Below, in pieces: positions 21,226 to 28,039 of a stretch of 64,000 bases of DNA (the first letter of the stretch is position 1; each line of letters opens with the position of its first letter). The stretch lies in the NCBI RefSeq assembly GCF_003334785.1, contig NZ_QOWV01000002.1; one strand, given 5' to 3'. Below the pieces are notes generated by a model, which was not told where the DNA came from, ran no database searches, and worked only from the letters and a program-made list of their open reading frames with translations. Source of the stretch: Escherichia coli (GTDB lineage: Bacteria; Pseudomonadota; Gammaproteobacteria; Enterobacterales; Enterobacteriaceae). Position numbers and translations under genes: made by a program.

Positions 21226-23229
21226 TCATCCTTGTTGCTGAAGCATGGGGAATAATTGTTCGCAAAGCAAAACACCGTTATTCATTGCTTCTACCCGTGC
21301 CTCGCTTTCTGTATTACGAAATTGTGCCAACACATGTGCCAGCCGATAAAAACCCACCGCGGTGAGGTCATTCGCCAGCAACTCTGCCTGACTAATAGCG
21401 CTCTGTTCCTGATAGCGCCAGCCGTTATGGAGCAGTTGAATAAGTAACGCCTGGCAGCGCATCAGCAACTGATGAGCAGTAGACGGCACAGGCAGAACGC
21501 TGGTAGAAGGTAGTGATACCACCACAGGCGCAGTTTCTGCGTCCAGCGCCCAGGCACGAGTCTTTGTCATCATTACCTGTGGTTCCAGTGTCAATTGCCC
21601 ATCAACAAAACTGACAAAGCCAGAAACCAGATACACGGGGTCGTCTGTTTGTTGCAAAAGCGCCGCCATGCGTTCAACGGCATAAGGCGCGCTGGCTGAG
21701 GCTGGCAGTGATAACGTCAGCAGATTATCTTCACCTTCGCCGCTGATTACCTGCGCATCCAGCGTCTGGCGGCTGCTATCCCAACCGAGCGAAATACACT
21801 CAGCGACCGGCAGAATAAATAAGTTATCGACCTGATTAAGAGGCCGTATGCAGGCGGGGGGACGCTGGCGTAAATATTCCCGCAAAGCCACAATGCCCGG
21901 CTGGCGTAACGGCGCGCTCAACATTTGCCAGGCATCAGGCGACAGCGGCACAACGCTGCTTAAGCGGTTGCGGGTAGCTAACAGCAGCTCGCCATCGGCA
22001 CTGCGTTTTGCTGCTTGTGAAACAATTTGCCCGCCCGCCAGTGCGCCAGCCTGAAAACTAAACAGCCGACGCGTAGCTGCCGGTGAGTTTTCCTGTTCAC
22101 TTCGCGGCCAACTGCGCGAAAGGTGCAAAATACTGCCGGTGTCGGGATCGGTAAACCAGATGCGTAAACCATAATGCTCAATATCCTGCCAGCAACGCAT
22201 ACCTAAAGACACCAGCCGCAGATGATCAAGCTTTGCTTCTCCGGCAATGCCTGCGCCAACGACCGTGCGCCACGGCATGGGAGGAATTTCACCAACACTG
22301 TCGCGCTGCGCCATTTCGTGTGCGCAATTTAATCGACTGTTTAATGCGGCAAGCTGACACAAGCATTCTCCGGCATGATAATGGCTTGCGCGGGCGTGGA
22401 AGGCATCAACGCTGGCGCGCAGTTGCCGTAGCGATTCACTCACCCATCGCCAGTTGCAGCGTTCCGCCGCTTGCTGCGCGCGGCTGAAAGCGGCCTCGTA
22501 GTGAATAAGCGGCTGGCTGATGCCGCCAAGCCATAATGCCTGGCTTAATTGCTGAACATATTGACGACACGTTTGGCCTTCTTCGCTGGCAAACGGATCG
22601 TCAGATGATGTGACGTGTTCGCTGCGCATCTGCCAGATTAAATGGTTAAATTCTGCTTGCTGCGCTTTGGCCTCGACGAAGGCCTGTACCGCCAGTACGA
22701 TATGTTCGCAAAGAGTGCCTTCAATACAATCACAACGGGCGAAACGAATGCTGCTGCGGGAATAAAAACGCACATCGCTCATCGGTAAGCGGGCAGAGGG
22801 AATTTCGCCCGGCGTACAGAACAACTCAATGGTGATGCCTTTAGCGACCAGCGCCTGCGCGCGTTTGCGGGTGGCATCGGGCAGGGTAGCCAGTTCTTCC
22901 AGCCAGATTGCCGGATCCCACTCTTCTTCTTTTTCCGCAGGCTGGGCGGTAGCACAAAGTCGTTGATAACTTAACACCAGCATCACGCGATGACGGCACA
23001 TGCCGCTGGCCCCACAGGTGCACTGAGCCTCTTTCAGTGCCTGGCCGTTCGCCAGCTGGGTACGGACACCGTCACTGAAGGTGGCGATTAAAGCGCCGTT
23101 CTCATGGCTGATTTCCGGGACGTTGCCATTTTCCAGTTCCTTAAGGCTGCGCTTAACAAAACCGGCATTGCTTAACGCCGTCAGTGCCTGTGGTGTCAGT
23201 TCTAATAATTCCGGACGTAGTGAATTCAT
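21226..23229 (-). CDS. yehQ: protein with two SWIM-type zinc-finger motifs, function unknown
   Basis: Two CxCx5CxH motifs (CTCGASGMCRH and CDCIEGTLCEH). Start chosen at MNSLRPELLEL... because its ATG forms a 4-nt ATGA overlap with the yehP stop; track ORF begins 24 nt further upstream. Confidence 0.8.
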   Translation of the reverse strand: MNSLRPELLELTPQALTALSNAGFVKRSLKELENGNVPEISHENGALIATFSDGVRTQLANGQALKEAQCTCGASGMCRHRVMLVLSYQRLCATAQPAEKEEEWDPAIWLEELATLPDATRKRAQALVAKGITIELFCTPGEIPSARLPMSDVRFYSRSSIRFARCDCIEGTLCEHIVLAVQAFVEAKAQQAEFNHLIWQMRSEHVTSSDDPFASEEGQTCRQYVQQLSQALWLGGISQPLIHYEAAFSRAQQAAERCNWRWVSESLRQLRASVDAFHARASHYHAGECLCQLAALNSRLNCAHEMAQRDSVGEIPPMPWRTVVGAGIAGEAKLDHLRLVSLGMRCWQDIEHYGLRIWFTDPDTGSILHLSRSWPRSEQENSPAATRRLFSFQAGALAGGQIVSQAAKRSADGELLLATRNRLSSVVPLSPDAWQMLSAPLRQPGIVALREYLRQRPPACIRPLNQVDNLFILPVAECISLGWDSSRQTLDAQVISGEGEDNLLTLSLPASASAPYAVERMAALLQQTDDPVYLVSGFVSFVDGQLTLEPQVMMTKTRAWALDAETAPVVVSLPSTSVLPVPSTAHQLLMRCQALLIQLLHNGWRYQEQSAISQAELLANDLTAVGFYRLAHVLAQFRNTESEARVEAMNNGVLLCEQLFPMLQQQG

Positions 23230-24362
23230 GACTGAAGGTTCTCTGCAAGCCATGATGCCAGCTCGCCCGGCGTCATGGCGGCTATTTGTGCGCCGACATT
23301 AACCAGCGCCTGGGCCGTATCGCGGTCATAGCAAGGCGTTGCTGTGCTATCGAGCGCTGCCAGTCCCAGCACTTTGATGCCGCTCTGGACACACTTTTTC
23401 ACCTGATGCGTCAGCAATGATGATGAACCCCCTTCATAAAAATCGCTCACGAGGATAATGACGCTTTTTGCTGGTTGTTCAATAAGTTGCCGACCATACT
23501 CCACGGCACTGGCGATATTGGTTCCGCCGCCCAGTTGTACTTTCATTAATAGTTCTACCGGATCGGCAACGTCTGCCGTGAGATCAACGACGCTTGTGTC
23601 AAACGCCACCAGATGGGTACGAATGCCGGGTAACTGCCACAAACAGGCCGCCATCACCGCAGAGTGGATCACCGAATCGACCATCGAGCCGCTTTGATCA
23701 ACCAGTAAGACCAGTTGCCATTGTTCGCTTTGGCGTTTAATGCGGCTGTTAAATCGGGGGGATTCGATATACAACTTGCCGTGTTGCGGGTGCCAGTGTT
23801 GCAGGTTGGCGCGCAGAGTACTTTTGAAATCAAAGTTTCGCGCCAGTGGAATAAATGAGCGGCGACGGCGATCGCGGACACCAGAAAAAGCCTGACGAAC
23901 TTCCTTTGCCAGTCGAGCCATAATTTCTTCAACAACCTGGCGCACTATCCGGCGGGCGGTAGCCAGTACTTCGGGGTTCATCAGATGTTTGGTATGCAAA
24001 ACGGCGCGTAGCAGGCTTTCAGAAGGCTGCATACGTTCCAGCACGTCGAGATTCGTCACCACATCTTCAATGCCATAGCGCAGTACGGCATCGCTTTCCA
24101 GCCGCTCAATCACCTGTTGCGGAAACAGCGTGTGAATACTGTTGATCCACTCAGGGGTGGTGAGATTTGAGCCACCTAATCCACCGGAGCGTTCACCACG
24201 CTGGAGCCGTTCAGGATCGCGCCCATACAGCCATTCCAGCGCGTGGTCTATCTGCCGGGCGTTGTCATCCAGCCCACAAAGCGTCGTTTCTGCCGCTTCG
24301 CCAAGAATTAATCGCCAGCGTTGTAGCTCACGGGGGGTCAGAAGATCGTTCAGTTCAGACAT
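23226..24362 (-). CDS. yehP: von Willebrand factor A (VWA) domain protein
   Basis: Start at MSELNDLLTPRELQRW... (378 aa); MIDAS-like DxSxS motif (LLVDQSGSM); start overlaps the yehM stop by 8 nt. Confidence 0.85.
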   Translation of the reverse strand: MSELNDLLTPRELQRWRLILGEAAETTLCGLDDNARQIDHALEWLYGRDPERLQRGERSGGLGGSNLTTPEWINSIHTLFPQQVIERLESDAVLRYGIEDVVTNLDVLERMQPSESLLRAVLHTKHLMNPEVLATARRIVRQVVEEIMARLAKEVRQAFSGVRDRRRRSFIPLARNFDFKSTLRANLQHWHPQHGKLYIESPRFNSRIKRQSEQWQLVLLVDQSGSMVDSVIHSAVMAACLWQLPGIRTHLVAFDTSVVDLTADVADPVELLMKVQLGGGTNIASAVEYGRQLIEQPAKSVIILVSDFYEGGSSSLLTHQVKKCVQSGIKVLGLAALDSTATPCYDRDTAQALVNVGAQIAAMTPGELASWLAENLQS

Positions 24363-27840: not shown

Positions 27841-27871
27841 AAATAAAAAAACCTGCTGGTGAGGCAGGTTC
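27841..27871 (-). terminator. rho-independent terminator after yehK
   Basis: Minus strand reads stem aacctgcc-tcaccag-caggtt followed by a U-run (plus-strand A-run at 27841-27851); separates yehK from the yehL promoter region. Confidence 0.65.
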
Positions 27872-28039
27872 TTTTATTTACTATTTTCAGGCCCAACACC
27901 GCAGCCTGTGCAACATCGTGTTCCAACGAACGAATTATAACCACGGCTGGACCCCGTTGCAATTAAGATAATGAGATTTATAATCCAGGCCATTGGGACG
28001 TTGCGCCGGATCGGACCAATTTGAATTATTTAGAGTATA

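Follow-up and report, generated by a model that had tools for sequence, protein, structure and literature searches.

A conserved five-component MoxR-VWA module at the molR/yehI-yehLMPQ locus of Escherichia coli and its possible function

Introduction

The closest described relatives of the locus studied here are systems in which a MoxR-class AAA+ ATPase is paired with a von Willebrand factor A (VWA) protein, such as RavA-ViaA, NorQ-NorD, CbbQ-CbbO and CoxD-CoxE. Here, we have analyzed a 64,000-nucleotide stretch of an Escherichia coli genome (assembly GCF_003334785.1, contig NZ_QOWV01000002.1; the whole stretch is referred to as the window), whose list of open reading frames (ORFs) places yehL, yehM, yehP and yehQ co-directionally on the minus strand. 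The original prediction, made from the sequence alone, had presented these four genes as an operon and as the strongest candidate for an undescribed system in the window, which is fair in the sense that the system is uncharacterised but not in the sense that it is unrecognised. The MoxR-VWA pairing that it had pointed to is present, yet it is not new, as YehL has already lent its name to one of the seven subfamilies of MoxR (PMC3893208). Literature searches on the gene names, DUF5682/DUF4132, MoxR with vWA and SWIM, and TraB/ChaN with MoxR found no published functional study, in line with the earlier statement that neither substrate nor phenotype had been established. As described below, the locus is an annotated, widely distributed and functionally uncharacterised five-component variant of the MoxR-VWA theme, and the new points are that YehM and YehQ now have concrete domain assignments and that the absent phenotypes of strain K-12 find an explanation.

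The resemblance to the studied MoxR-VWA pairs is that YehL, an AAA_5 protein with all catalytic motifs, is encoded near YehP, a VWA protein with an intact metal-ion-dependent adhesion site (MIDAS). YehP belongs to the Pfam family VWA_CoxE and its MIDAS is complete, which likens the pair to CoxD-CoxE in particular. On the other hand, the studied pairs have no counterparts of the DUF5682, SWIM and WGR-DUF4132 subunits found here and contain no hydrolase-fold or nucleic-acid-binding parts. Among solved structures, the closest sequences to YehL are the AAA modules of eukaryotic midasin/Rea1 (the best match, 3e-10) and MoxR 2r44. Midasin also joins AAA_5 modules with a MIDAS domain, and it acts on a nucleoprotein particle, extracting assembly factors from pre-60S ribosomes. 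However, midasin is a single chain of ~4700-4900 residues with six fused AAA modules, whereas YehL (362 aa) and the MIDAS protein YehP are separate; a partner with a ubiquitin-like (UBL) domain is not evident for the yeh module, and the similarity is at the domain level only.

The vWA-MoxR ternary conflict systems (Kaur et al. 2020, PMC7159879) likewise combine a MoxR-vWA pair of CoxD-CoxE stock with extra, more variable components, and they share with the yeh module a CoxE-like helical vWA N-terminus and a patchy distribution that includes plasmids. The original prediction had mentioned these systems, but the locus is not one of them, because the features defining them are absent: no VMAP, iSTAND or beta-propeller component was found (the Pfam domains of YehM, YehQ, YehI and MolR were DUF5682, SWIM, DUF4132 and WGR only), and YehP carries no effector at its C-terminus, where the VWA domain reaches residue 372 of 378. 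The description of the ternary systems makes no mention of SWIM, DUF5682 or DUF4132 (PMC7159879).

Results

Organisation of the module in the window

All module genes are intact in the window, and their positions and predicted products are as follows.

yehL, 27733..26645, minus strand: 362 aa, MoxR-class AAA+ ATPase of the YehL subfamily; AAA_5 at aa 79-220 (window 27074-27499)
yehM, 26634..24355, minus strand: 759 aa, DUF5682; N-terminal ~250 aa at window ~25885-26634, the remainder a helical-repeat scaffold
yehP, 24362..23226, minus strand: 378 aa, CoxE-type VWA protein with a helical N-terminal part; VWA at aa 151-372 (window 23247-23912)
yehQ, 23229..21226, minus strand: 667 aa, two SWIM fingers, helical bundles, a beta-rich middle and a C-terminal helical bundle
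parts of yehQ, minus strand: SWIM at aa 56-88 (22966-23064), SWIM at aa 160-183 (22681-22752), beta-rich region at aa ~330-562 (21544-22242)
yehI, 28418..32050, minus strand: 1210 aa, molR paralogue without WGR; DUF4132 at the C-terminus
molR, 32060..35854, minus strand: 1264 aa, WGR-DUF4132 protein, intact

Direct reading of the junctions agreed with the packed arrangement described before. The yehL-yehM junction, TGAggaaagatgcATG, is a 10-nt gap that contains a GGA-rich Shine-Dalgarno sequence, the yehM-yehP junction, ATGTCTGA, is an 8-nt overlap, and yehP and yehQ overlap by the 4 nt ATGA, so that the layout expected for translational coupling stands. Further upstream, the yehI ATG follows the molR stop after 9 nt. 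The operon had originally been delimited as 21226-27880, a range whose genes are real, but whose upper end, at 147 nt upstream from the start codon of yehL, falls within an Orz-type gene that is unrelated to the operon (see below). Tight spacing is kept in 80 loci of other species (median gaps of 7 nt for L-M, -28 nt for M-P and -10 nt for P-Q), and since both gene order and spacing recur there, the layout is more than chance.

Conservation and distribution of the module

To survey the module, one genome per bacterial species was scanned with two YehM peptide patterns, which identified a relative in 200 species, and 80 loci were kept. As the pattern scan is strict, these 200, among about 100,000 species, are a lower bound. 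Components were then counted by an iterated hidden Markov model search over the six-frame ORFs of 81 loci. YehL was encoded directly upstream of YehM in 80 of these, and YehP and YehQ directly downstream in 78, so that the four genes do occur together across genomes (78-80 of 81 loci), as the original prediction would have it. What it had missed is a fifth member: a DUF4132 protein, represented in the window by the WGR-DUF4132 gene molR and by yehI (28418-35854, outside the earlier range), accompanies the others in 74 of the 81 loci, mostly abutting yehL but following yehQ in Burkholderia. The conserved unit is thus one of five genes including the WGR-DUF4132 protein (molR/yehI), rather than four. 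Loci lacking some of the components were contig ends or decayed remnants; the latter include L053 and L062, which have no YehP, YehQ or YehI.

The loci belonged to Enterobacterales, Burkholderiales, Xanthomonadales, Myxococcales, one deltaproteobacterium and Actinobacteria. In Serratia fonticola, the WGR-DUF4132 gene directly precedes those for AAA_5, DUF5682, VWA_CoxE and SWIM. All five families also occur on a Sinorhizobium conjugative plasmid (~36% identity), where the order is permuted to AAA, DUF5682, DUF4132, VWA and SWIM, and on Streptomyces linear plasmids. On plasmid pl1 of Iodobacter fluviatilis (76 kb, mobilizable), the module is flanked by insertion sequence (IS) elements and adjoins a type I restriction-modification system that includes a gene for a PDDEXK nuclease (L089, 15092-18749), the sole defence-island-like context among the loci inspected. 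Within E. coli, the block was found in 5394 of 5426 complete genomes, annotated as yehL/M/P/Q every time, and 5203 of the 5426 showed full-length coverage. Across phyla, conservation ranged from 64 to 99% for YehL and from 56 to 97% for YehP, compared with 30-89% for YehQ and 30-88% for YehI. The putative targeting subunits, YehQ and the DUF4132 proteins, are thus much less conserved than the motor and adaptor.

Subunits and their predicted folds

YehL matched the whole Pfam AAA_5 model (4.6e-34), with a bpMoxR match of 0.0021 only, and its Walker A (GEPGTAKS, 83-90), Walker B (E156-E157), sensor-1 (N203) and arginine-finger residues (R218/R219) were invariant among 80 homologues. YehP, encoded two genes downstream of yehL in 78 of the 81 loci, matched VWA_CoxE (3.2e-72; match ending at residue 372 of 378); the MIDAS residues D222, S224, S226, T281 and D307 (DQSGS, 222-226) were invariant and the protein length constant among 76 homologues. 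Its profile had no match among Protein Data Bank (PDB) sequences. Scans with PADLOC and NCBIfam models gave weak sub-threshold GvpN/MadB matches for YehL and a weak cobaltochelatase match for YehP, and no NCBIfam match of any of the proteins exceeded the cut-off. All of the motifs named in the original prediction could be located, namely GEPGTAKS at YehL 83-90, DQSGS at YehP 222-226 and CxCx5CxH at YehQ 70-80 and 166-176, and its AAA+, VWA and SWIM assignments were backed by Pfam (AAA_5/MoxR, VWA_CoxE and, weakly, SWIM).

YehM, in which no motif could previously be placed, proved to be a DUF5682 protein (Pfam, 3.3e-97) with a predicted hydrolase fold of the TIKI/TraB type at its N-terminus. 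In the model, the first ~250 residues adopt a TIKI/TraB/ChaN/erythromycin-esterase fold, an alpha/beta fold with a parallel beta-sheet core as in members of that superfamily, and the model matched a TraB protein, HopBA1, ChaN, Bcr135/136-type proteins, PMT, EreC and RRSP. Four residues, H11, E35, E176 and H202, were invariant; they lie in GxxH, E, RE and GGxH motifs, and the two His and two Glu may correspond to the 2His/2Glu motif of the TIKI/TraB/PrgY/ChaN/erythromycin-esterase superfamily. The model suggests that the N-terminal domain of YehM is probably a hydrolase. In contrast to members of the TIKI/TraB superfamily, YehM has no detectable sequence-profile relation to Pfam TraB (PF01963; no match at E <= 10), and its domain is joined in one chain to a helical scaffold of ~500 residues and encoded within a MoxR-VWA operon, a context of which no description was found. 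Alignment of the YehM profile with E. coli YbaP (TraB family) by hhalign was not significant, with a probability of 0.2, and covered the second GxxH motif only; the homologue search for YbaP returned close relatives only. The YehM profile had no match among PDB sequences.

A family search over 1.84 billion representative proteins retrieved 3279 YehM family members. Some of them, with ~1150-1220 residues, are fusions of DUF5682 to a full YehP-like VWA protein, including P0232 and P0241, which are 52-54% identical to full-length YehP, and a further one in the Streptomyces locus L088. Such natural fusions (Rosetta-stone evidence) suggest that YehM and YehP bind each other, with which the overlap of their genes agrees.

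The two SWIM motifs reported for YehQ are both present as CxCx5CxH, but only the first finger is invariant (C70, C72, C78 and H80; 57 sequences), the second being kept in the majority only, and the Pfam SWIM scores are weak (1.3e-3 and 0.16). In the AlphaFold2 model of YehQ (predicted local distance difference test score (pLDDT) 93.2, predicted template modelling score (pTM) 0.90), the beta-rich middle forms two consecutive beta1-3/helix/beta4-5 units. The best Foldseek matches of this region were RPA70 DBD-A/B, Teb1, LEF-3, CTC1, POT1 and HIN (E from 1.6e-3 upward), and nearly all of its oligonucleotide/oligosaccharide-binding (OB)-like matches were single-stranded DNA binders. The modelled middle of YehQ therefore bears a marginal resemblance to the tandem OB folds of RPA70/POT1 type. 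The likeness to the RPA70/POT1/Teb1 class lies in the tandem beta units and in structural matches drawn almost exclusively from that class; however, the scores are marginal, YehQ has no sequence similarity to these proteins (nor did its profile match any PDB sequence), and the region is bordered by SWIM fingers and helical bundles that are absent from RPA-like proteins.

MolR contains a WGR domain (Pfam, 5.3e-18; aa 6-69) and DUF4132 (9.7e-50; aa 988-1173), and is 45% identical over its full length to the Serratia WGR-DUF4132 gene product encoded next to yehL. Judged by this alignment, molR is orthologous to the conserved fifth component. YehI carries DUF4132 (6.4e-46) and, beginning at residue 110 of MolR, the two proteins are 37% identical, which identifies yehI, by sequence, as a diverged molR paralogue without WGR. 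Tandem DUF4132 duplicates were also found in Massilia, Klebsiella and Chitinibacter, and the DUF4132 copy number varies from 1 to 3 across E. coli, some strains having extra copies of molR. Profiles of MolR and YehI had no match among PDB sequences.

Selection, decay and silencing in Escherichia coli

Comparisons within Escherichia gave ratios of nonsynonymous to synonymous substitution rates (dN/dS) of 0.02-0.05 for yehL, 0.04-0.06 for yehP, 0.08-0.16 for yehM, 0.09-0.22 for yehQ and, leaving out the low-divergence K-12 comparison (0.68), 0.07-0.18 for yehI. All five genes are under purifying selection. Single components are often broken within E. coli, in a way that differs from strain to strain. 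In K-12, yehQ (L083, 10001-12001) has a stop at codon 615, by which the final helices of the C-terminal bundle are lost, and molR (L083, 20832-24627) is a frameshifted pseudogene. In O157:H7 F7508 (L091, 9002-14407), yehM has an internal stop and an IS1203 insertion truncates yehQ. AHB3 has a stop in yehI, EH09-18-41 has molR and yehI fused into a remnant, and in ST131-L1a a resistance transposon sits in the DUF4132 region (PMC9334617). The lesions of K-12 and O157:H7 mean that standard laboratory and reference strains have defective systems, and the truncated yehQ and broken molR of K-12 may explain the missing phenotypes.

It has been reported that H-NS binds upstream of yehL and that yehL and yehM are derepressed in hns/stpA mutants (PMC3686432). 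The yehK-yehL spacer is AT-rich, which fits binding and repression by H-NS. Identity of the window to K-12 is mosaic (94-98% for yehLMPQ, 99-100% for yehK, yehI and molR, and 99% for the yehK-yehL spacer), a pattern that points to recombination breakpoints near this spacer and near yehR. Diversifying selection was considered as the cause of the yehLMPQ divergence from K-12 and rejected, given the low dN/dS and the presence of similar mosaic blocks elsewhere in the window.

Locus variants and neighbouring features

A highly divergent variant of the module (~25% identity) is present on a plasmid of Streptomyces sp. NBC_00984 (L088, 1875-14594). It encodes an AAA ATPase, the DUF5682-VWA fusion mentioned above, a DUF4132 protein of small size and a protein of 1639 aa that is annotated as 'DNA-binding protein'. 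A further protein, of 625 aa, can be aligned at its N-terminus with the first of the YehQ SWIM fingers. In some species, foreign genes lie between the module genes. A HigB/HigA-like toxin-antitoxin pair lies between yehM and yehP in an Azoarcus metagenome-assembled genome (L048, 4134-5687), and a 351-aa repeat protein is encoded at the same place in Chitinibacter (L047, 12512-13564). In the decayed betaproteobacterial locus L062, a 291-aa ORF (9094-9966) lies between yehL and yehM; by eye, its N-terminus resembles what we take to be a BRO-N-type phage domain.

Further features adjoin the module in the window.

yehK, 28040..28357, minus strand: 105-aa ORF, an Escherichia-specific insertion
Orz-type antitoxin small-RNA gene, 27845..27920, minus strand: in the yehK-yehL spacer, Rfam RF02083
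candidate operon-end terminator, 21131..21147, minus strand: terminator-like hairpin and T-run between the yehQ stop and yehR, from a consensus scan

Neither yehK nor yehR was accepted as a member of the module: yehK occurs in only 3 of the 81 loci, all from Escherichia, and yehR is limited to Escherichia and Klebsiella. No Pfam, NCBIfam or PADLOC family matched yehK. In Variovorax, an unannotated 145-aa ORF (L084, 8387-8824) occupies the position equivalent to that of yehK in E. coli.

The Orz gene (27845-27920, minus strand) was recognised by RF02083, with a score of 101.3 bits (gathering score 60; E 2.6e-16). It has a sigma-70-like promoter, TTGCAA-17-TATAAT, at 27962-27934 and a terminator hairpin at 27870-27850. 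The spacer in the window contains no divergent 29-aa Zor toxin ORF, and by these sequence features the window holds an orz-only remnant of a zor-orz type I toxin-antitoxin locus. Orz-only loci are a class already described (PMC11264685). K-12 has the same 306-nt spacer with 3 differences only. The corresponding spacer of O157:H7 is 1.24 kb long with two Orz RNAs and two 29-aa Zor toxins. The zor-orz locus therefore has its place in the yehK-yehL spacer, immediately before yehL.

Several PHROGs families (phrog_30700, 33984, 31592, 29006, 36295, 20839 and 36602) match the Yeh proteins end to end. A phage origin was rejected, because the profile lengths equal those of the E. coli proteins, as expected for chromosomal sequence captured in prophage predictions, which would make these families a database artefact; a search of a phage genome collection gave one weak partial match only.

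Discussion

The reading that we tentatively prefer, with a probability of about 0.4, is that molR/yehI and yehLMPQ encode one multi-subunit cytoplasmic MoxR-VWA machine, a nucleic-acid-triggered or -targeted remodelling-and-cleavage device for genome conflict or stress surveillance rather than for routine enzyme maturation. In such a machine, YehL would form a ring and, as in NorQD, CbbQO and midasin, a partner would be gripped at an acidic residue by the MIDAS of YehP, so that ATP hydrolysis by YehL could pull or twist it. YehM would sit on YehP, and its predicted hydrolase would be either switched on by the motor or given its substrate by it. MolR/YehI (through WGR) and YehQ (through SWIM and probable tandem OB folds) might steer the complex to nucleic acid or nucleoprotein, and H-NS would keep the system silent.

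Several lines of evidence suggest this reading: the co-occurrence of the five families, even in permuted order on the Sinorhizobium plasmid; the physical link implied by YehM-YehP fusions and conserved gene overlaps; the conservation of active sites; the nucleic-acid modules, that is, the WGR of MolR, the invariant SWIM finger and the OB-like Foldseek matches of YehQ; the gradient from a steady motor and adaptor to variable putative targeting subunits, together with a DUF4132 copy number of 1-3; and the regulation by H-NS and occurrence on mobilizable or conjugative plasmids. Several observations, on the other hand, speak against a role in defence: in E. coli the locus occupies a fixed place on the chromosome (5394 of 5426 genomes), its neighbours in Serratia, Variovorax and Iodobacter are ordinary housekeeping genes, and gene-wide dN/dS values indicate purifying rather than diversifying selection. 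Moreover, none of the eight proteins matched PADLOC models (2023 library) at E <= 0.01, and no classical toxic effector domain was found in the module proteins. We consider it rather unlikely that the locus is the founding case of a new MoxR-VWA class, in which WGR, SWIM and RPA-like OB modules would direct a midasin-like motor to nucleic acid that is foreign or damaged, or to proteins caught on it, and the motor would then activate or feed a TIKI-type protease; the same estimate covers jointly the two forms that this could take, an immune system not yet catalogued or a bacterial equivalent of the AAA+-assisted proteolysis of DNA-protein crosslinks.

The same domain evidence could also be accommodated by housekeeping quality control or repair of nucleoprotein, in which WGR, SWIM and OB modules would recognise proteins that are trapped or have stalled on DNA or RNA, the motor would extract them and YehM would degrade them, by analogy with Cdc48 and SPRTN/Wss1 in DNA-protein crosslink repair or with midasin stripping factors from pre-ribosomes. 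The fixed chromosomal position, near-universal in E. coli, the purifying selection on five genes and the non-defence flanking genes would all fit. We nevertheless hold this to be improbable, because a core repair system should be broader in distribution and less often lost, whereas the module is patchily distributed, as noted above, occurs on plasmids, is silenced by H-NS under laboratory conditions and has repeatedly lost components (K-12, O157:H7, ST131-L1a, AHB3 and EH09-18-41). More doubtful still is a dedicated assembly or metal-insertion chaperone for one enzyme complex, like CoxD-CoxE, NorQ-NorD, CbbQ-CbbO or RavA-ViaA. The name once given to molR, 'molybdate metabolism regulator', would suggest that the client is a molybdoenzyme, and both the WGR Pfam entry and the naming by PGAP go back to MolR. 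YehP does belong to VWA_CoxE, and all of the experimentally studied MoxR-VWA pairs are maturation factors (PMC3893208; PMC7159879). However, in E. coli, Serratia, Variovorax, Iodobacter, Sinorhizobium and Streptomyces, the surroundings of the module contained no genes for client enzymes (cox, nor, cbb, mxa or a molybdoenzyme), so that none is conserved in the inspected loci and the yeh module does not appear to be a CoxDE-type maturation cluster; such a role would also leave the WGR, SWIM, OB-like and TIKI-like parts unexplained. Finally, silencing by H-NS, independent lesions in 5 of the 7 E. coli alleles examined (ST131-L1a being counted from the literature) and the truncation of ~10% of the E. 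coli YehM clusters in the protein database, some of which are contig ends, could be taken to mean that the locus is a silent, decaying relic with no current function in the species. This seems very improbable considering the low dN/dS of the five genes across Escherichia species (0.02-0.18), the intact genes of the window with their invariant catalytic residues, and the full-length coverage retained in 5203 of 5426 genomes.

With ~14 kb and seven genes here, the block is among the larger function-less parts of the near-universal gene set of E. coli. In place of four genes of unknown nature, our analysis offers a concrete hypothesis with testable residues. It comprises a motor and a MIDAS adaptor, to which a probable hydrolase and subunits that probably bind nucleic acid are added, and the natural fusions predict which subunits are in contact. 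The truncated yehQ, the broken molR and the H-NS-silenced operon may provide a practical reason why decades of work on K-12 gave no result. If the module does carry out nucleic-acid-guided remodelling and cleavage, MoxR-VWA biology would reach past enzyme maturation, and a TIKI-fold enzyme would be placed in a MoxR-VWA operon, a pairing that we did not find described in the literature.

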